The notes below the pieces were generated by a model, which did no database searches, was not told the DNA's origin, and saw nothing but the letters and a program-made list of their open reading frames with translations. The position numbers and the translations under genes are program-made. A stretch of 20,934 nucleotides of DNA from a virus (lineage: Duplodnaviria; Heunggongvirae; Uroviricota; Caudoviricetes): IMG/VR virus record IMGVR_UViG_2703718809_000015; one strand, 5' to 3'. Shown piece after piece: positions 4,339-14,189 of the stretch (its first letter is position 1; each line of letters begins with the position of its first letter).

Positions 4339-4613
4339 GTGGTACTTTTTGTGGGAGTCATCCACTTACGCACTTTGTTTTGCTATGCCAGCAGTTAGCT
4401 TCTGCTGTAAAACTATTCATGCAGCAAACCTGCACTTCACCACAATGGTTAGCATACTTTTCCTGATTAAGTTATTGCCAAATATGCTGGCCATTGTTTC
4501 ATGTATTGGACCTCCTTACTATTTATTAAAGAGATCCAATATTCACCACTCTGTCTGTATCTCCACTCAGGCATCAGCCTTCTTCGTTATCGTATACAGA
4601 CAAACTATGAATT

Positions 4614-4829
4614 TTAATCAGTAATTATGACATTTGCTGCTGCAGGACCTTTAGCACCACTCTCTACAGAGAAGGTAACCTTTTGACCTTCAAATAAGGT
4701 TCGATAATTATCATTCTGAATCGCAGAAAAATGCACAAACACATCTTTACTACCATCAACAGGAGAAATAAAGCCAAAACCTTTATCAGCGTTAAACCAT
4801 TTTACTAAACCAGTCATTTTATTTGACAT
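4614..4829 (-). CDS. cspB: Cold-shock protein, CspA family (CspB-like, 71 aa)
   Basis: Translation [71 protein letters not shown]; divergent from the cspF/H-like gene, as cspB-cspF are in Qin. Confidence 0.85.
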
Positions 4830-5129
4830 TCTACATTCCTTAACTTGAGCCTTTCGGCATAAATGGCTTGTATAACAGAAACGACTTCGTACTTAATTGG
4901 AGAGACTCAAAGAAGGAATAAGTGAATAACACCTGAAATGAGAACTGCTTTAGTAAACTACTTCGTATATCGTCTGTTCTTCAAACCGACGCAATCATTA
5001 ACGCATAGTTGAACATATGAAGCAATGTTTATTTTAGACATCCAGCCATCTTCAACCCCATCAAAAAACTATAGCTTTCTTCAGGAACGTGTGTATAGTG
5101 CGCCAAGTTATCAGTATTAAGGAATTTTT

Positions 5130-5764: not shown

Positions 5765-6517
5765 TTATCTCGTCACCTTTCTCAATTGTGCTTCAGCGTA
5801 AGATTCCTCCTGCCAGCACTTTGTAACCAGTTTATCAATGACATTTGCATATCCTTTATACCACTGATAATCACTCAGGTCCGGTACCAGCTTCTGGACA
5901 TGATGCCGCGCCAGTGTGGTTGGTAAACGACTAAACCGTTTTCCATTGCAACGCCCACAAATCTTATAAACAGGTGTGCCATGAAGCCGGGTCCTTTTTT
6001 CATCCAGGACAATACCTTTACCCTTACACCCTCTGCACGCTGTGCTGACTTCTCCCTTACCATGGCAATGCTGACATAGTTCCTTCACCCACTCTTCTTT
6101 GATAACAGATTCCCCGCTTCTGGAGTGTTTCACCACTTCGCGCAATACATTATGAAATCCAGTACCAGCACAATGCTCACAACGAGCCTTACTTGCCGCA
6201 GACCTGGAATAATCAGCAAAGGCAAAATTCACAAGGTAAGGAATAATCTGTAGCCGGGTTTCTTCACTCAATTTATTCAATGTCGGGTTATCCAGTGCCA
6301 TCGCGTAATTGAGCAGACCTTCAATCGCAAACTGAGGATCCTGAACACCAACTTTTGCCAGGAATAAGGCAAACCCAAGCGGTGCTTTCGACTGCACCAT
6401 CCCCTGCGCAGCCATCACATCCGTAATCGTTAAACCACCAGAGCCTGTCGCCGGTGCGTCATCACTCAATTTTGGAGATTTTGGGGAGTAATATTTTGGT
6501 AAGGCTTCAAGGTTCAT
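5765..6517 (-). CDS. Late-gene antiterminator Q (phage 21/82-type, zinc-binding), 250 aa
   Basis: Multiple CxxC motifs (CEHCAGTG, CQHCHGKG, CRGCKGKG, CGRCNGKR); 250 aa, the length of QuuQ in Qin; GGAG 8 nt upstream of the ATG; followed by a promoter-terminator pair. Confidence 0.75.
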   Translation of the reverse strand: MNLEALPKYYSPKSPKLSDDAPATGSGGLTITDVMAAQGMVQSKAPLGFALFLAKVGVQDPQFAIEGLLNYAMALDNPTLNKLSEETRLQIIPYLVNFAFADYSRSAASKARCEHCAGTGFHNVLREVVKHSRSGESVIKEEWVKELCQHCHGKGEVSTACRGCKGKGIVLDEKRTRLHGTPVYKICGRCNGKRFSRLPTTLARHHVQKLVPDLSDYQWYKGYANVIDKLVTKCWQEESYAEAQLRKVTR

Positions 6518-6530
6518 GCTCGTTCTCCAC

Positions 6531-7526
6531 TTACGCCAGTACGCCTATTGCCAGCGCACGATCGATAAAACGAAATATCAGCTCCAGCTGGGAGCCATAC
6601 TTCTCTTCAAATGCCACGGTATCCGCATGCAGCTCGTCGTGATGCTTTCTGCACAAAGGCAACACAAAAAGGTCATGCGCTTTTGTACCCATTCCCCCCT
6701 GACCGTGGCCTATCAGGTGGTGGGGATCATCAGCAGGTTTTCCACAACATGCGCACGGCTGCGTCTTAACCCAGCGCGTGTACTTTTCATTAACCCAGCG
6801 GTGACGTTTTGGGCGTAACATAAAAGACTCCGGCGACTCCGGATCCACTTTCAGCGCCAGCACCTTTTTCGCCTTATCCTGGATGATGCTGGTGGCAGGA
6901 ACCGAAGGCACAAGGTCACTTTCCCGGGTAACAGACGGCACAACAGGCTTCGGTAATCTCAGTGCCTTACGGGCTGCACTTTCCGGTAAGGCATCCGCCA
7001 GATCATTACGAATCAGCCACCAGCACAGTTCCGGCATTGTCACAACATGACTGTCATCAAAACCGAGATCCCGACGCACAACAGACAACACCCAGCGGGC
7101 ACAGTTATCCGTTGCCATTGATTCCAGCCGTTCCGTGAACTGATCGCGCAGCTGGTTATCGCAGTGCCAGCACAGACGGATTGCGCCCGGAGCGTGTCGC
7201 ATTGTTGTCATGTTCTCGCTGTGCCAGTCGGAATGAGGCCACTGGCAGCCTTTTTCACGAAGTAACCAGCTTTCAAGACATTCCACGCCACCAGCACGAC
7301 GGATCACTGCCTCATTGCGGAACACGGCCCGAACGGCAGGATCATCCGCCAGCGGTTGTGATGCCGCCGGAACGGCACCACTGGCGAAAGATGAATAACG
7401 TTCCGGCTCAGGCTCCAGCAGGACACGCCCCTGCATAAACAAGGGCATCAGCTCTGAACCTGGTCTGAACAATACGATCCCCATACGCGGGGCAATTTCA
7501 GGGGTCAGTAGTGCTCTCACGGTCAC
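6531..7526 (-). CDS. DUF968-family protein (YdfU-like), C-terminal Cys/His-rich HNH-like motif; start uncertain (GTG at 7526)
   Basis: C-terminus QPCACCGKPADDPHHLIGHGQGGMGTKAHDLFVLPLCRKHHDELH; sits immediately upstream of Q on the same strand, as ydfU does in Qin. Confidence 0.6.
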   Translation of the reverse strand: MTVRALLTPEIAPRMGIVLFRPGSELMPLFMQGRVLLEPEPERYSSFASGAVPAASQPLADDPAVRAVFRNEAVIRRAGGVECLESWLLREKGCQWPHSDWHSENMTTMRHAPGAIRLCWHCDNQLRDQFTERLESMATDNCARWVLSVVRRDLGFDDSHVVTMPELCWWLIRNDLADALPESAARKALRLPKPVVPSVTRESDLVPSVPATSIIQDKAKKVLALKVDPESPESFMLRPKRHRWVNEKYTRWVKTQPCACCGKPADDPHHLIGHGQGGMGTKAHDLFVLPLCRKHHDELHADTVAFEEKYGSQLELIFRFIDRALAIGVLA

Positions 7527-7527
7527 C

Positions 7528-8343
7528 TCAATGAACGGTATCGAGCAGCTTTAACAGCTCAGGGAATCGGGATTCGAAGAAATGCGGCTGCGTCTCGCGC
7601 GGATTTGCAGGACTGGTGATGTTCTTGCCGAACATGCAGCCTTTCGCGGTCAGCGACCAGAATTTTTTGATGTTGTTAATCGCGGTACGACTGTATCGTT
7701 CGCGTTGTTCAACGATCCCCAGCTTCGCCATCTGGTGATATGCCTGATTAGCCGTCAGGCGGATACCATACTGCTTCAGCAGTGCACTCAGCGACAGCGT
7801 AGGGCGGCTTGAACCATCTGGCGCATCAGCAGGTGCATCAATGGCATAGATCGGCATAAGTTCAGGAAGACCAGCTACCTTTGATAATTTCTGGTATGCA
7901 CCAAGTTTCGAGGAGTTTGACAGATTTAGAGTCTTTGCTGCTGATTCAAGCAGAATGACCCCGGATTTAATTTTGTCGGATGTGGTTTCTTCTGGTGATG
8001 AATTATGAAGCGCATCAAAAGTACGTATCACTTTTAAGCTGAATGCCGGGCTGATCCACATTGCATATGCATAGACCAGCTCTTTACAGACATACGTCCC
8101 ACCATTGCGCCCCTGAATGGTGATGACAGGAATACTACGGGAATCTCCCGTAGTTTCTTCTTCCAATAATTCCACAAGAGCCTTCGTTTCAGGACGACGC
8201 ATAAACTCGTGAACTTCCAGCGAACGGGAGGAGCGATTCTCACCAGCGGCAAGAAGAGCAGCTTTCTGAAGGTCGTTAAGACAGTAGTTAGATTCGAAGT
8301 ACTGGCGCACAGAAACGCCATCAATTACAAGCAACTGATTCAT
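7528..8343 (-). CDS. KilA-N domain protein (candidate antirepressor-like), about 271 aa from the ATG at 8341-8343
   Basis: N-terminus MNQLLVIDGVSVRQYFESNYCLNDLQKAALLAAG... resembles the KilA-N/APSES-type fold. GGAG about 6 nt upstream of the ATG; the track ORF starts at an upstream GTG. Confidence 0.6.
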   Translation of the reverse strand: MNQLLVIDGVSVRQYFESNYCLNDLQKAALLAAGENRSSRSLEVHEFMRRPETKALVELLEEETTGDSRSIPVITIQGRNGGTYVCKELVYAYAMWISPAFSLKVIRTFDALHNSSPEETTSDKIKSGVILLESAAKTLNLSNSSKLGAYQKLSKVAGLPELMPIYAIDAPADAPDGSSRPTLSLSALLKQYGIRLTANQAYHQMAKLGIVEQRERYSRTAINNIKKFWSLTAKGCMFGKNITSPANPRETQPHFFESRFPELLKLLDTVH

Positions 8344-8440
8344 TGGTTTCTCCACAAATTTTTATCCACGAGCGGGACTGCACTCCCTTTTCGTTGATGC
8401 AGGATGAACTTACTGCGATTTTTAATAGTTATCAAGGATA

Positions 8441-8460
8441 CACTGTTCATAAATACAGTA
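8441..8460. promoter_or_regulatory. Canonical LexA (SOS) box upstream of the KilA-N gene
   Basis: CACTGTTCATAAATACAGTA fits CTGT-N8-ACAG exactly. It sits just downstream of a candidate minus-strand promoter (TTGAGC at 8495-8500, 17 nt, TATTAC at 8472-8477). Confidence 0.5.
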
Positions 8461-8505
8461 TCTTTAACGAGGTAATACCCAAATTTAGGGTGTTGCTCAA
8501 TTCCG

Positions 8506-8950
8506 TTACCGAGTTGCTAATTTGCAACTCGCTTTTTCGTACTTACTGATAGTGATCTCGACCTTCCCCTCCGGGATAACCGGTCCCCACTCCACCAGCA
8601 TTCTTTTCACCTGACTGTCGTCTTCCCACACACCCGCGTGGGTCAGGACGTCAAACAGCGCCTTGTTATAGTTGTCCAAGATCGCGGATCCGGTTATCCG
8701 GAGGAAACAACACGATCTCCACTGAAGCAGGTGCCGACGTTGGTTTTGGCAGACGACGTAACTGCTCAACTATTGCTGCGCACGCCGCGCTCTGGAATTT
8801 GCGCCCCGCCGCGCTCTGGAATTTGCGCCCCGCCGCGCTCTGGAATTTGCGCCCCGCCGCGCTTATCAGGCTCTTACCTGCAAACGCCCCTTTGTTGGGG
8901 TGTCGCCAGTACGTGTTCACGCTGGGCGGAAAAGGCAGGATCAGCTTCAT
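8506..8950 (-). pseudogene. rusA: rusA-like Holliday-junction resolvase, frameshifted, with an in-frame triplicated 24-bp repeat
   Basis: N-terminal part MKLILPFPPSVNTYWRH...PPDNRIRDL (ORF 8666-8950) and C-terminal part LDNYNKALFDVLTHAGVWEDDSQV... (ORF 8506-8769) are in different frames. A GG at about 8676-8677 where a single G would restore RIRDLDNYNK (the catalytic acidic motif region) is the apparent +1 insertion. Confidence 0.75.
8784..8864. repeat. Perfect tandem repeat, 24 bp x 3 plus a partial fourth copy, inside rusA
   Basis: GCCGCGCTCTGGAATTTGCGCCCC at 8784-8807, 8808-8831 and 8832-8855, then GCCGCGCT; encodes SAAGRKFQ three times on the minus strand. Confidence 0.9.
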
Positions 8951-9273
8951 GCTTTCAGGCCCCTCTCATGTAACCAGTGGGTTGCACGCAGCCTTGCGTT
9001 TTCCTCACCGGCAAGCAGTGAGCGGATAATCCCGACCGCCTCGCTGTCGTCGTCCTTCACCGCGGTATGAAGCGTTATCCCCCGGGCCACGCCACGCTTT
9101 ATCGTGATGACGCCTTTTTTCTCCAGTGCGCGAAGATGCTCCACCGCTGCATTCACTGAACGGTATCCCAGCATGGTTGCCACCTCCTGATTGGTTGGCG
9201 GGAAGCCACGTTCTTTCTGGTAAGAAATCAGCATATCCAGCACCTGCTGCTGGCATTGAGTTAATGTCGCCAT
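8947..9273 (-). CDS. LexA-like N-terminal DNA-binding-domain protein (108 aa), no S24 peptidase domain
   Basis: Translation MATLTQCQQQVLDMLISYQKERGFPPTNQEVATMLGYRSVNAAVEHLRALEKKGVITIKRGVARGITL closely parallels the LexA winged-HTH domain including the recognition-helix region (S-x-N-A-A-x-E-H-L-x-A-L). The C-terminal 40 aa is unrelated to the LexA peptidase. ATGA overlap with rusA. Confidence 0.65.
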   Translation of the reverse strand: MATLTQCQQQVLDMLISYQKERGFPPTNQEVATMLGYRSVNAAVEHLRALEKKGVITIKRGVARGITLHTAVKDDDSEAVGIIRSLLAGEENARLRATHWLHERGLKA

Positions 9274-11232: not shown

Positions 11233-11453
11233 GCAGCACCTCCGAGATGCTTCATGTTTTTTCCGGAGCGAAAGGCTATAAGCGGCATACTGACGCGGTA
11301 ACTACGGCCCAGCGGTTCACAAATCACCTTCTGACATTCACGGTCAACCAGGCTAACACGTAGAACATGCCCTGCAGGTGTGGTGTACCACTGACCCGGA
11401 CGAGGACAACGGAAAGTCTGATTGGTAAACCGTTTGAAAATATTCCGGATCAT
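11229..11453 (-). CDS. Hypothetical protein (74 aa), translationally coupled between the Rha-domain ORF and the O-like gene
   Basis: ATGA overlaps at both ends (11450-11453 and 11229-11232). No family recognised. Confidence 0.45.
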   Translation of the reverse strand: MIRNIFKRFTNQTFRCPRPGQWYTTPAGHVLRVSLVDRECQKVICEPLGRSYRVSMPLIAFRSGKNMKHLGGAA

Positions 11454-12598
11454 TTGCGCCCCCTTACCTCTGAAGGGTTCAGCGACAAATTTATGAGGCA
11501 GGCCAGTGCCGAAGCATCATTAATATAGTCATACAAGCTAACAGCCAGCGGAGATTCGGCTTTTGCCAACATAGGATAAAGCTGCTGCAGCCAGACCTGA
11601 TGAATTGATGAAATGTAGGAATAGAGAATGCTGGCGTTATGTGCAACGTCGCTCGGTACAGAGGGTTTTGAAAGCTGTTTCTCCATCTGGTTAAAGGCAT
11701 TGATATATGCCTCTTTGAACTGGGCAGCACGTTTACCCGTGAAACCCATAGCAAGAAACGCAAAGCCGTCGCGGGTTATTTGATAGCAAGGTAGTTTGCG
11801 GCCTGATGCGTCGATGTACTCACTGAGCTGGAAATTCAGCTCAGTAAATTCGGCAGAGCATTCAAGAGACGCAATTTTTTGAATGACATTTTTGTGTTGT
11901 TTGCCGAAATAACTAGCAACAGCCAGAGAAGAAGTAACAACTTTGTCTGCAATAATGCAAAGTTCAGGTTGTACTAAGGCAGGGATCGTAGCCATGATGG
12001 CAGCCTCCGTATGCAATGGATAACTTCCACCACCGGAAACGCCAATTTCGCTGGTGGTGAACTGAGCAGGGTTGGCGTAACCGGCGCATACGGAAACCGG
12101 CGCACCTTTCGGTGCCCCCACCCAGCCCACCATAATTTGGGTATAGCTGAGTTGTAGCAACAAAAAAGACGCTAACGCGCCAATTGTCGCCGTATGCAAT
12201 TCCAGGACGCCAATCCCGGCACCCGCTTTATAAGGTGCCTGAACAGTGTAACGTCCCGGAATGGCAGAATCAATGTGCTGGTGGTCCTTCACACTCAACA
12301 AAATCACGCCTGAATTTCCACAAAGGACTAAAGCACTCATGCGGGTAGTCTTTGCGAAGATAGATAACGCGCTGTGTTTCTGGCTCCCAACGAATAACAT
12401 GAACATAAAGTCCTCTTCCGTCACGAAACCAGCGGTTAAGTTCCTGCACAACTCGCCCCCCACAGTCAGGTAAAGTTCTCTGTGGTTACTTACAGCCAGG
12501 TGATTTGGTAATCTGCATTCATGCCGTAACAACAGGTGTTCAGCCACGCGGACCACCAGCTGTTGCGACCAACGGTTATTTGCCGTTAAACTGTTCAT
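11450..12598 (-). CDS. Rha-domain phage regulatory protein; 382-aa ORF with an unrecognised about-200-aa N-terminal extension (alternative internal start at 11995 gives about 181 aa)
   Basis: C-terminal half LAVASYFGKQHKNVIQKI...GRKLPCYQITRDGFAFLAMGFTGKRAAQFKEAYINAFNQMEKQL matches the Rha signature. The ATG at 12596-12598 overlaps the stop of the upstream gene (ATGA); a second ATG at 11993-11995 has GGAGG 8 nt upstream. Confidence 0.6.
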   Translation of the reverse strand: MNSLTANNRWSQQLVVRVAEHLLLRHECRLPNHLAVSNHRELYLTVGGELCRNLTAGFVTEEDFMFMLFVGSQKHSALSIFAKTTRMSALVLCGNSGVILLSVKDHQHIDSAIPGRYTVQAPYKAGAGIGVLELHTATIGALASFLLLQLSYTQIMVGWVGAPKGAPVSVCAGYANPAQFTTSEIGVSGGGSYPLHTEAAIMATIPALVQPELCIIADKVVTSSLAVASYFGKQHKNVIQKIASLECSAEFTELNFQLSEYIDASGRKLPCYQITRDGFAFLAMGFTGKRAAQFKEAYINAFNQMEKQLSKPSVPSDVAHNASILYSYISSIHQVWLQQLYPMLAKAESPLAVSLYDYINDASALACLINLSLNPSEVRGRK

Positions 12599-13146
12599 GC
12601 GTTAGTTTCTCCACAGACACAAAACGCCACGACGCCCGGAGCTGCACACTCGCGGGCGTCACTCTTTTCTGGAACGCAGAAAATTTTGTAGACCAGTGCC
12701 GCATGTTCCTGGAGCTTCGAAATCGACAGATACAACTCATCATTAATTGCTGTCTGCTCATGTGGCTCCACTACCCCGTCTTCGATTGCCGAACGAATCT
12801 GCTTTGAGTAACTCCCGATCTGTTCAATAACTTCCAGTAGACGTTGGTTGATATCAGCGTTCTCTACTTCCTCAATTTCTGGAAGTGATACAAACACCCC
12901 ACCAGCAGACTGTGCGACAGCATCCGCAATGTGGTGAGTACCAGCCGCACGCTGTAAAACCATTGCCCATCCCAACGGAAAAAACTGATCGCCATCGGCA
13001 CGAAGGCGGTTAAATAATGCGTTATCTGTTACATCCAGCCAGTCAGCAGCTTCAGCGTAACCACCTGGTAATGCCGCGATAGTTTTTCTGACAGCTTTCA
13101 CGTACCAGTCAGGTTGTTTTTCCACTTTCCAGTGATACTTACCCAC
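12595..13146 (-). CDS. Putative phage regulatory protein at the cII position (183 aa), GTG start
   Basis: Directly downstream of the cro-like gene; GTG at 13144-13146 preceded by AGGAGG with 6-nt spacing. Functional assignment is positional only. Confidence 0.45.
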   Translation of the reverse strand: MGKYHWKVEKQPDWYVKAVRKTIAALPGGYAEAADWLDVTDNALFNRLRADGDQFFPLGWAMVLQRAAGTHHIADAVAQSAGGVFVSLPEIEEVENADINQRLLEVIEQIGSYSKQIRSAIEDGVVEPHEQTAINDELYLSISKLQEHAALVYKIFCVPEKSDARECAAPGVVAFCVCGETNA

Positions 13147-13399
13147 GGCTTACCTCCTGTTCCTGTGGTTTTAACTCATTCTGGTTTTGACTAGATTGAA
13201 AGCGCGCAGGATAGAGAATCTGCATTTCGCTGATTTCTCCCTTAAAAAAATTGGCCAGACGCTCTGCAAGATCGATAGATGGAATTTGTTCCAGTCTCTC
13301 AATACGACTCAGCGTCGCTGGATTAACCTGAACGCCCGCAGCAACATGCTGCAAAGTAAACCCATGCGCCTTACGCACATTTCGTAATGGTGATTGCAT
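13139..13399 (-). CDS. cro: Cro-like HTH (XRE-family) regulator, 86 aa
   Basis: HTH segment FTLQHVAAGVQVNPATLSRIERLEQIPSIDLAERLANFF; divergent from the cI-like gene across an operator region; GGAGG 4 nt upstream of the ATG. Confidence 0.7.
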   Translation of the reverse strand: MQSPLRNVRKAHGFTLQHVAAGVQVNPATLSRIERLEQIPSIDLAERLANFFKGEISEMQILYPARFQSSQNQNELKPQEQEVSRG

Positions 13400-13496: not shown

Positions 13497-14189
13497 ATGA
13501 ACATAGGAAACCGAGTCAGACAACTTCGCCAAGCGAAGAACATGAAAATCGCCGATCTCGCTGAAGCAATAGGAGTGGATGCGGCGAATATCTCGCGCCT
13601 GGAAACAGGTAAGCAGAAACAATTCACTGAACAAGCCCTGAGTAATATTGCCAGGAGCTTAGGTGTTGATATTGCTGATCTCTTTACCTCAGACGTCAAA
13701 AGTAATACTGTATATAAAAACAGTGTTAGTGAGGATGTTGCGCAGGTGAAGGATGTATTCCGTATTGAAATGCTGGATGTCAGTGCCAGTGCGGGAAATG
13801 GCCTTATCCAGGGCGGTGATGTCATTGATGTGATTCATGCCATTGAATACAGAACTGATAATGCTGTATCGATGTTTGGCGGACGACCAGCCAATCACAT
13901 TAAAGTTATCAACGTTCGTGGGGACAGTATGTGTCCAACCATTGAGCCAGGAGATCTCATCTTCGTTGATGTCAGTATCAATCAGTTTGATGGAGATGGT
14001 ATCTATGTATTTGGTTTTGATGATAAAATTTACGTTAAACGACTGCAAATGATACCCGACAAACTGCTGGTAATTTCGGATAATCAGATTTACCGTGAAT
14101 GGGGAATTACCAGCGAAAATGAACACCGGTTTATGGTCTTTGGAAAGGTCTTAATCAGCCAGTCACAAACTCTTAAGCGACACAATTAA
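13497..14189 (+). CDS. cI: CI-like repressor (HTH XRE domain plus S24 LexA-like autopeptidase domain), 230 aa
   Basis: N-terminal HTH (MKIADLAEAIGVDAANISRLETGKQ); C-terminal GDSM serine motif and VKRL lysine; Ala-Gly in the linker (SASAGNG). Confidence 0.85.
   Translation: MNIGNRVRQLRQAKNMKIADLAEAIGVDAANISRLETGKQKQFTEQALSNIARSLGVDIADLFTSDVKSNTVYKNSVSEDVAQVKDVFRIEMLDVSASAGNGLIQGGDVIDVIHAIEYRTDNAVSMFGGRPANHIKVINVRGDSMCPTIEPGDLIFVDVSINQFDGDGIYVFGFDDKIYVKRLQMIPDKLLVISDNQIYREWGITSENEHRFMVFGKVLISQSQTLKRHN

Follow-up and report, generated by a model that had tools for sequence, protein, structure and literature searches.

The window analysed here is the whole 20,934-nucleotide stretch of the viral record IMGVR_UViG_2703718809_000015, which corresponds to the early and regulatory half of a lambdoid Escherichia coli prophage. 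Over 92% of its length it shares 97.7% identity with prophages of sequenced E. coli strains, and the segment under study is 98.9-99.6% identical to that of the active phages SfIV and PhiR49_1. The rightward early operon lies on the minus strand and starts at PR, the lytic promoter repressed by CI. The element in question is an SOS (LexA) box at 8441-8460. It lies about 5 kb from cI and cro, in the equivalent of the nin region and outside the immunity region, within a gap that separates a disrupted rusA gene from a gene for a KilA-N domain protein. There is about an even chance that this box serves as an operator of the host LexA that provides kilA-N, and probably also the DUF968 gene and the antiterminator gene Q, with transcription independent of PR. 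The locus, from the repressor gene to Q, is composed as follows.

13497-14189, plus strand: cI, whose product has helix-turn-helix (HTH) and Peptidase_S24 domains
13139-13399, minus strand: cro-like gene, first in the order of the PR operon and followed by a cII/YmfL-like gene
11450-12598, minus strand: 'Rha' open reading frame (ORF), after the cII/YmfL-like gene and followed by a replication gene, PerC and Dam methylase
8947-9273, minus strand: LexA DNA-binding-domain-only gene (108 amino acids, PF01726), after Dam methylase
8506-8950, minus strand: rusA, disrupted, after the LexA-domain gene
8344-8505: gap of 162 bp with the SOS box, between the rusA stop codon (8506-8508) and the kilA-N ATG (8343-8341)
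8441-8460: SOS box CACTGTTCATAAATACAGTA (read on the minus strand, TACTGTATTTATGAACAGTG), an exact CTGT-N8-ACAG
7528-8343, minus strand: kilA-N gene (271 amino acids), assigned by Pfam KilA-N, PHROGs and structure searches
6531-7520, minus strand: DUF968/HNH gene, 7 bp downstream of kilA-N (phrog_96, HNH endonuclease)
5765-6517, minus strand: antiterminator Q gene, 13 bp downstream of the DUF968 gene (PF03589, E = 1.5e-53)

The original prediction, made from the sequence of the window, described the 20-mer as an exact match to the LexA consensus, and it is present exactly as written. The gap upstream of the KilA-N gene is also present and non-coding, although it measures 162 bp and not 150 bp. 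As expected of an E. coli-type LexA operator, the core of the box is exact and its spacer, TCATAAAT, is AT-rich. On a LexA matrix made of 20 E. coli operators, which themselves span 12-26 bits, the box scores 19.6 bits. The best site per shuffled window averages 10.8 bits (standard deviation 2.5) and never exceeds 18.3 bits, so that the position-weight-matrix scan suggested with the original prediction ranks the box above all 200 shuffles. The window has three exact CTGT-N8-ACAG sequences where 0.22 ± 0.48 would be expected, and none of 100 shuffles gave three. In the complete genomes of SfIV (39.8 kb) and PhiR49_1 (45.3 kb), the box is the sole LexA-like site of at least 11 bits. On these sequence grounds LexA is very likely to bind the box, which is very probably a genuine operator of the host repressor. 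A literature search found no paper linking the KilA-N gene, SfIV or PhiR49_1 to LexA, and it turned up no ChIP, EMSA or transcript data on the locus.

Both strands of the window were also scored with a sigma-70 log-odds model of base frequencies. The sites that matter for the position of the box, with the presumed PR for comparison, are the following.

8407-8435, minus strand: best promoter, TTGATA (8435-8430), 17-nt spacer, TAAGTT (8412-8407); 11.4 bits; box at about -41 to -60
8472-8500, minus strand: promoter of the original prediction, TTGAGC (8500-8495), 17 nt, TATTAC (8477-8472); 6.8 bits; box at about +5 to +25
8482-8455, minus strand: TTGGGT-16-TACTGT; 6.5 bits; -10 covered by the box
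8394-8422, plus strand: best plus-strand site of the gap, -10 GATTTT; 8.8 bits; box downstream of it
ending at 8459, plus strand: sites with the -10 TACAGT inside the box and a weak -35; 5-6 bits; overlapped by the box
13455-13427, minus strand: presumed PR; 9.2 bits

The TTGATA-17-TAAGTT promoter is the fifth best in the window, both strands considered. Five base pairs separate its -35 from the box upstream, and transcription from it is predicted to start near 8400-8398. Diverged relatives have counterparts at the same distance from the gene, with TTGAAA, TTGATA or TTGCAG, a 17-nt spacer, and TAATGT, TAGTGT or TAAGGT. These relatives keep the TTG of the -35, and an alignment of 10 sequences with differing spacers shows no change at T1, A2 or T6 of the -10. 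This conservation indicates that kilA-N has its own conserved promoter. The minus-strand promoter that had been proposed just upstream of the box is there as a sequence but is the weaker candidate (6.8 against 11.4 bits), and its -10 lacks the final T. The idea that the box lies downstream of the promoter is not sustained either, since the best and conserved promoter puts the box upstream of its -35. A tool-based promoter scan, which applies a 9-of-12 rule, found no qualifying site in the gap, the originally predicted promoter included. The box is close to every minus-strand candidate: 5 bp from the -35 of the 11.4-bit promoter, over the -10 of the 6.5-bit site and just past the predicted start of the 6.8-bit site. 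Bound LexA would hinder all three.

kilA-N, the DUF968 gene and Q are separated by 7 bp and 13 bp only, and no convincing minus-strand terminator was found between 7527 and 6518. It follows from this tight packing that a transcript starting in the gap should reach Q. The same order of the three genes recurs in relatives with three different Q types. The place of Q directly behind, in one block with kilA-N, was absent from the original prediction. In a lysogen, CI would hold PR closed while LexA would occupy the box. With 5 bp between the box and the downstream -35 of the conserved promoter, and with the two weaker sites under or near the box, bound LexA would lower kilA-N transcription, whichever promoter is used. 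Upon DNA damage, RecA-stimulated cleavage of LexA would clear the region, and KilA-N, probably together with some Q, would then be produced in parallel with the self-cleavage of CI. This second SOS input would target the delayed-early and late control region and not the repressor. DNA damage thus would probably switch on kilA-N and Q directly; here we infer three steps, namely the occupancy of the box by LexA, repression from its position and read-through into Q.

The CI protein of this prophage is of the cleavable type, as had been proposed. In addition to the HTH and Peptidase_S24 domains (the latter with E = 6.3e-19), its sequence contains the Ala-Gly site (SASAGNG), the serine of GDSM and the lysine of VKRL. 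The combination of a cleavable S24-type CI with a LexA box outside the immunity region makes more than one SOS input plausible. This agrees with the suggestion of two inputs in the original prediction, and a further, stronger SOS box within cI itself (see below) adds to its plausibility.

A feature absent from the original prediction is the LexA-domain gene of the PR operon, located two genes upstream of kilA-N and about 490 bp upstream of the box. Its 108-amino-acid product (8947-9273, minus strand) matches PF01726 over positions 1-65 of 65 (E = 5e-19) and no other domain. It aligns to residues 2-69 of E. coli LexA with about 50% identity, and the alignment to LexA stops at about residue 90. 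No S24 cleavage/dimerisation domain was found in it, TIGR00498 being matched at positions 1-91 only. The recognition helix reads SVNAAVEHLRAL, compared with SPNAAEEHLKAL in E. coli LexA; RS-NAA-EHL-AL and the RGI of the wing are conserved, while E44 is replaced by V. Proteins of this kind, about 106-108 amino acids long, form a large family in prophages of E. coli, Citrobacter and Salmonella, including Stx2 phages. Lacking the cleavage domain, the protein cannot be inactivated by RecA; it is probably a non-cleavable LexA mimic, to judge from its domain content.

There is a precedent for such a protein in the Bacillus phage GIL01, where host LexA and gp7 repress the late promoter P3, which is activated by the truncated LexA homologue gp6 (PMC6182141). 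Both phages encode a protein limited to the DNA-binding domain of LexA, and both have a LexA box at a promoter that leads to late genes. In GIL01 the site of the homologue is beside or over the -35, and the geometry here, with the box against the -35 upstream of Q, would be compatible with such a circuit. However, GIL01 is a tectivirus without CI that uses LexA as its lysogeny repressor, whereas the prophage studied here is lambdoid, has a CI and exerts late control via Q. By this analogy, the box could be mainly, or also, an operator of the phage LexA-domain protein, which would be made from the PR operon after induction and re-repress the kilA-N/Q promoter after the loss of LexA or activate it as gp6 does at P3. 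The completeness of the DNA-binding domain, in which nearly all recognition-helix and wing residues are those of E. coli LexA, speaks for this explanation, as does the GIL01 case, with its late promoter repressed by host LexA and activated by a truncated homologue from a site next to the -35 (PMC6182141). The gene is a near neighbour of the box in the same operon, and it is present in 45 of the 50 box-bearing loci (45 loci have both, 5 the box only, 10 the gene only and 85 neither). Yet this co-occurrence is given little weight, since only about 0.5 kb lies between box and gene and the loci with the box are close to clonal, so that linkage and shared descent confound it. The gene is moreover present in the 10 box-less loci, among them Stx2a_1447 and L060-L063, which means that the box is not its sole target. 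The E44 to V change in the recognition helix and the putative nature of dimerisation by the 40-residue tail also count against it. Altogether, a role of the phage protein at the box is possible but rather unlikely.

The history of the gap bears on whether the box has any role at all. The gap is found in 186 of 5426 complete E. coli genomes, including those of O104:H4 C227-11, S88, O157:H7 FRIK944 and O111:H8. Its copies are 87.7-100% identical to that of the window, the most diverged one in E. coli having 9 differences in 151 bp, and the core of the box is intact in all 5 aligned variants; divergence among E. coli copies is too low for reading selection on the box. Among viral contigs with the gap, 51 of 52 have an intact core, the remaining one being a metagenomic variant with AGAG in place of ACAG. 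E. coli and Shigella of diverse backgrounds carry the module, and recombination has brought it, box intact, into phages whose cI, Q and KilA-N C-terminal alleles differ. The prophage of O104:H4 C227-11 (locus L256, 1460676-1478837) has the same cI allele, Rha, LexA-domain gene, box, kilA-N, DUF968 gene and Q as the window. Its late region has the layout of an Stx phage (three tRNA genes, a nanS-p-like esterase and a holin) and no stx genes. A link of the box to Shiga toxin was considered and rejected, since the Stx2 phages that match the region have the box-less allele.

In the usual arrangement among relatives (Stx2a_1447, SfII, strain A22 and Stx2c phages), kilA-N starts 19 bp after rusA and there is no box. 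Compared with this allele, that of the window has a replacement of about 143 bp and a diverged KilA-N N-terminus, the C-terminal halves being nearly identical. The positional homologue of the box in relatives consists of the last rusA codons, GTG GAT xxA TGA, followed by ACAGT (GTGGATxxATGAxCAGT). This sequence contains a perfect right half-site and a partial left half-site and is a few substitutions short of a box. In the lineage of the window, rusA ends 46 nt further upstream, and the former rusA end is now an exact palindrome. Phylogenetic footprinting in 28 viral and 80 genomic loci with KilA-N relatives found no conserved box. Weaker LexA-like sites are enriched about 10-fold upstream of distant homologues (5 in 32 kb, compared with 7 in 438 kb). 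Moderate sites at about -115 in relatives were examined as operators and rejected, as they are the last rusA codons. Because several of the enriched weak sites are rusA coding sequence, the footprinting neither supports nor refutes a function of the box. By these comparisons the box is confined to one recent, nearly clonal clade, and it must be noted that the loci bearing it are not independent of each other.

It could be assumed from this history that the box binds LexA but has no regulatory role. It would then be a by-product of recombination, in which the old rusA 3' end became non-coding and a few substitutions completed the palindrome. The restriction to a single nearly clonal module, the half box that pre-exists in the rusA coding sequence of relatives, the scant divergence from which to read selection and the one natural variant with a broken core are all in keeping with this assumption. 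However, a half-site turns into an exact core (16 of 16) around an AT-rich spacer only by several specific changes. The box has furthermore stayed intact across 186 genomes and in phages with different cI, Q and KilA-N C-terminal alleles, and it stands directly against a conserved promoter. We consider a box without any role to be unlikely.

Several observations nonetheless weigh against control of kilA-N and Q by host LexA, the explanation that we prefer. The LexA and sigma-70 matrices are both ad hoc. In E. coli, the majority of LexA operators coincide in part with the -35, the -10 or the transcription start, and a box at -41 to -60 would be unusual for repression by LexA. KilA-N relatives at 72-84% identity have a gap of 76-160 bp with no box, the homologous position scoring at most 11.7 bits; this, and the derivation of the position from rusA C-terminal codons, indicates that the box is young. 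Most relatives thus keep the promoter without a LexA box, which implies that the promoter is harmless, weak or otherwise controlled and makes its role in driving Q in a lysogen less convincing. The metagenomic variant that has lost a core base points in the same direction.

An RNA on the opposite strand is another conceivable target of the box. The last rusA codons contain the palindrome CGAGTTGCAAATTAGCAACTCG (8531-8510, minus strand), which came with the SOS box as part of one inserted module and reads CGAGTTGCTAATTTGCAACTCG followed by CTTTTTCG on the plus strand. As the T run follows the palindrome on the plus strand only, it is terminator-like solely for transcription antisense to the operon. 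The box might then control a plus-strand RNA of about 75-110 nt that starts in or beside the box, ends at the hairpin at 8510-8531 and runs antisense to both the upstream portion of the gap and the 3' end of rusA. Plus-strand sites with the -10 TACAGT inside the box do exist, but they are poor (5-6 bits), and the best plus-strand site of the gap has only GATTTT as its -10. An Rfam search of the gap gave a chance-level match only (Ysr209, E = 6.4), and the three terminator-like sites of the region are within the range of shuffled sequences. Such an RNA is highly improbable.

The KilA-N protein was originally taken for an antirepressor-type protein, by analogy to the established LexA-controlled antirepressors. 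Its ORF matches the Pfam KilA-N domain (PF04383) at residues 10-114 with 57.6 bits (cut-off 23.8, E = 1.3e-15). The N-terminal KilA-N domain is followed by a helical linker and by a C-terminal domain that resembles a winged helix. In PHROGs the protein belongs to phrog_129, 'transcriptional regulator', and the source names of its homologues are all either 'KilA-N domain-containing protein' or 'DNA-binding protein'. For the C-terminal half, Pfam gives no match even at E ≤ 10 and no KilAC similarity, and an NCBIfam search with the protein returned no match. An AlphaFold2 model has a mean pLDDT (predicted local distance difference test) of 77. With Foldseek, its top matches in BFVD are KilA-N proteins of phages and large DNA viruses, down to E = 1e-10; in the PDB the C-terminal domain is weakly winged-helix-like, with no match at E ≤ 0.001. 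P1 KilA carries an ANT/KilAC domain in addition to KilA-N. The protein studied here shares with P1 KilA and its family the clear N-terminal match but differs in its C-terminal domain, which has no detectable KilAC similarity.

The domains linked to antirepressors are AntA/B, ANT/KilAC, Bro-N and pRha (PMC9043618), and none of them is found in this protein, which matches KilA-N only. The antirepressor-type reading confuses KilA-N (PF04383) with these domains. The analogy to LexA-controlled antirepressors fails as well, because in the Gifsy systems the repressors are non-cleavable and the antirepressors are small (PMC3121763), neither of which is true here. An antirepressor identity was thus rejected after searches of Pfam, PHROGs, NCBIfam and PDB sequences and after AlphaFold2 and Foldseek, which gave KilA-N and a weak winged helix, and KilA-N would be a DNA-binding regulator. 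That it inactivates CI under LexA control, like Tum, GfoA or AntC, is hardly credible: an SOS box does precede the gene and the locus is outside the lambdoid immunity region, as in Gifsy phages (PMC3121763), but the protein has no homology to any antirepressor-linked domain, has 271 residues compared with the small Gifsy antirepressors, has homologues that mostly sit in the PR operon as ordinary delayed-early genes with a 19-bp gap and no box, and would not be needed as an antirepressor since CI is of the cleavable type.

Other elements of the window deserve mention. Between the conserved promoter and kilA-N, the transcript is predicted to form a hairpin.

8364-8398, minus strand: leader hairpin, inner stem GGGA/UCCC (8387-8374), loop GUGCAG; from the minimum free energy fold and covariation

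This hairpin is some 20-30 nt upstream of the kilA-N ribosome-binding site (GGAG at 8350-8353), and across relatives it is 20-80 nt upstream of the start. In 24 distinct sequences, from a set that had been selected for having a stem, the TGCAG of the loop, (G/U)UGCAG, is invariant and 5 of 5 stem pairs have changed on both sides; a single stem pair is seen as AU, CG, GC and UA. The z-score of the fold is only -0.73, so that it is the covariation that supports the hairpin. Equivalents are found in loci L003, L004, L060-L126, L144 and L166 and also within the rusA 3' end of the gap-less allele. The G that follows TGCA on its 3' side lacks a symmetric counterpart, and this points to an RNA element rather than a protein-binding palindrome. 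The Rfam search of the gap gave no match for it.

An ORF of 37 codons (8340-8450, minus strand) begins within the SOS box, with its ATG at 8450-8448, and its TGA shares bases with the start codon of kilA-N (ATGA). This ORF is in frame with kilA-N in some relatives and also in the FRIK944 variant, where 11 bp are deleted, and this explains gene calls of 296-301 amino acids. Because the frame through the hairpin differs among relatives, a conserved peptide is improbable. As to the disruption of rusA, the gene has two units more of a perfect 24-bp tandem repeat than it has in strain Z247 (3.4 copies at 8783-8863, in frame), and relative to that strain a single inserted base near 8679 shifts the frame.

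The best LexA-like site of the window is located within the repressor gene.

13706-13725: second SOS box, TACTGTATATAAAAACAGTG, inside cI, in the linker between HTH and S24 (about residues 70-76); 23.3 bits

It is present in 80 of 80 viral contigs with the same cI allele and in strain A22, but not in ymfK-type cI alleles. Its variation is limited to the central spacer base (the codon being Tyr, Cys or Phe) and the last base. A plus-strand TTTACC-17-TACTGT (8.5 bits) overlaps this box. Possibilities suggested by these features are an internal promoter for a fragment of CI with the C-terminal domain only, or a transcription roadblock.

The 'Rha family' ORF (11450-12598) codes for 382 amino acids with Ash and pRha domains, pRha beginning at residue 222. 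Rfam detects a C4 antisense RNA (12050-12137, 80.7 bits) and isrK (12162-12238, 61.2 bits) within it, both above their gathering scores. The best sigma-70-like site of the window, TTGATT-17-TACACT at 12273-12245 (minus strand), is just upstream of isrK/C4. By its sequence matches, the segment with isrK, the C4 RNA and the pRha protein (11450-12273) is a module of the P1/P7 immI or Gifsy IsrK type, apart from kilA-N, and the annotated N-terminal part of the 'Rha' ORF is probably non-coding. The third exact CTGT-N8-ACAG of the window (CTGTGGTTACTTACAG, 12480-12495) has a GC-richer spacer, scores 5.8 bits and lies about 210 bp upstream of the isrK promoter. Elsewhere in the window, Rfam finds two cspA-type thermoregulator leaders (113.7 and 156.7 bits; 1305-1720 and 4551-4990, minus strand) before the prophage cold-shock genes cspI and cspB, as in Qin-like prophages.

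Among systems studied before, the Gifsy prophages have a LexA-controlled dinI-gfoA/gfhA/gftA locus downstream of the replication genes, with a palindrome before it (Lemire et al. 2011, PMC3121763). The two loci are alike in that the phages are lambdoid, the LexA box is outside the immunity region, between the replication genes and Q, a palindrome precedes it, and prophage genes are linked to the SOS response. The cargo differs, however, being a small antirepressor and a DinI homologue with a non-cleavable repressor in Gifsy, and here the 271-amino-acid KilA-N protein, DUF968 and Q with a CI that has the S24 autocleavage domain. Moreover, the palindrome here is not terminator-like on the sense strand.

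The p95-tum operon of coliphage 186, antC of N15 and ant of SPC32H are LexA-repressed antirepressor genes with the box overlapping the promoter core. They resemble the present case in having one canonical SOS box at a prophage gene outside the immunity region. They differ from it in that the KilA-N product is unrelated to the shown antirepressors and the box is beside the -35 of the best promoter. In the filamentous phage CTXphi, whose main early promoter is PrstA, the LexA site reportedly precedes the core of that promoter. The type of phage and the type of promoter are unlike those here. The likeness lies in this position of the site and in the joint control of prophage expression by LexA and the phage repressor (Quinones 2005; Kimsey and Waldor 2009; cited in PMC3323433).

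The locus is best seen as a variation on the LexA-controlled prophage loci of Gifsy, 186 and N15 in which the cargo is different (KilA-N, DUF968 and probably Q) and the CI cleavable. LexA-controlled prophage genes are a known alternative to repressor cleavage for SOS induction. To our knowledge, every case studied has an antirepressor as cargo and a non-cleavable repressor; here, the switch sits before a DNA-binding protein and the antiterminator Q, in phages with a cleavable CI. If the box is functional, DNA damage would reach late-gene control while bypassing CI, with effects on the timing of induction, on spontaneous lysis and on cross-talk in strains with several prophages. The module is carried by active phages (SfIV and PhiR49_1) as well as by pathogenic strains (O104:H4 C227-11, S88, O157:H7 FRIK944 and O111:H8).

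The locus would gain in significance should the phage LexA homologue act on the box. The truncated-LexA genes are a large and unstudied family, and the locus offers a concrete place for asking what role phage LexA mimics play in enterobacteria. A speculative and quite unlikely extension, drawn from the analogy to GIL01, is a two-LexA operator. In this model, host LexA would silence the PR-independent promoter of kilA-N, DUF968 and Q; the phage protein would later take over the site, and perhaps host SOS boxes and the box in cI too, thereby timing Q and the late genes and reshaping the SOS response of the host. If true, this operator would be the Gram-negative, lambdoid counterpart of the LexA/gp6 switch of GIL01, present in hundreds of E. 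coli and Shigella prophages, one of them in O104:H4.

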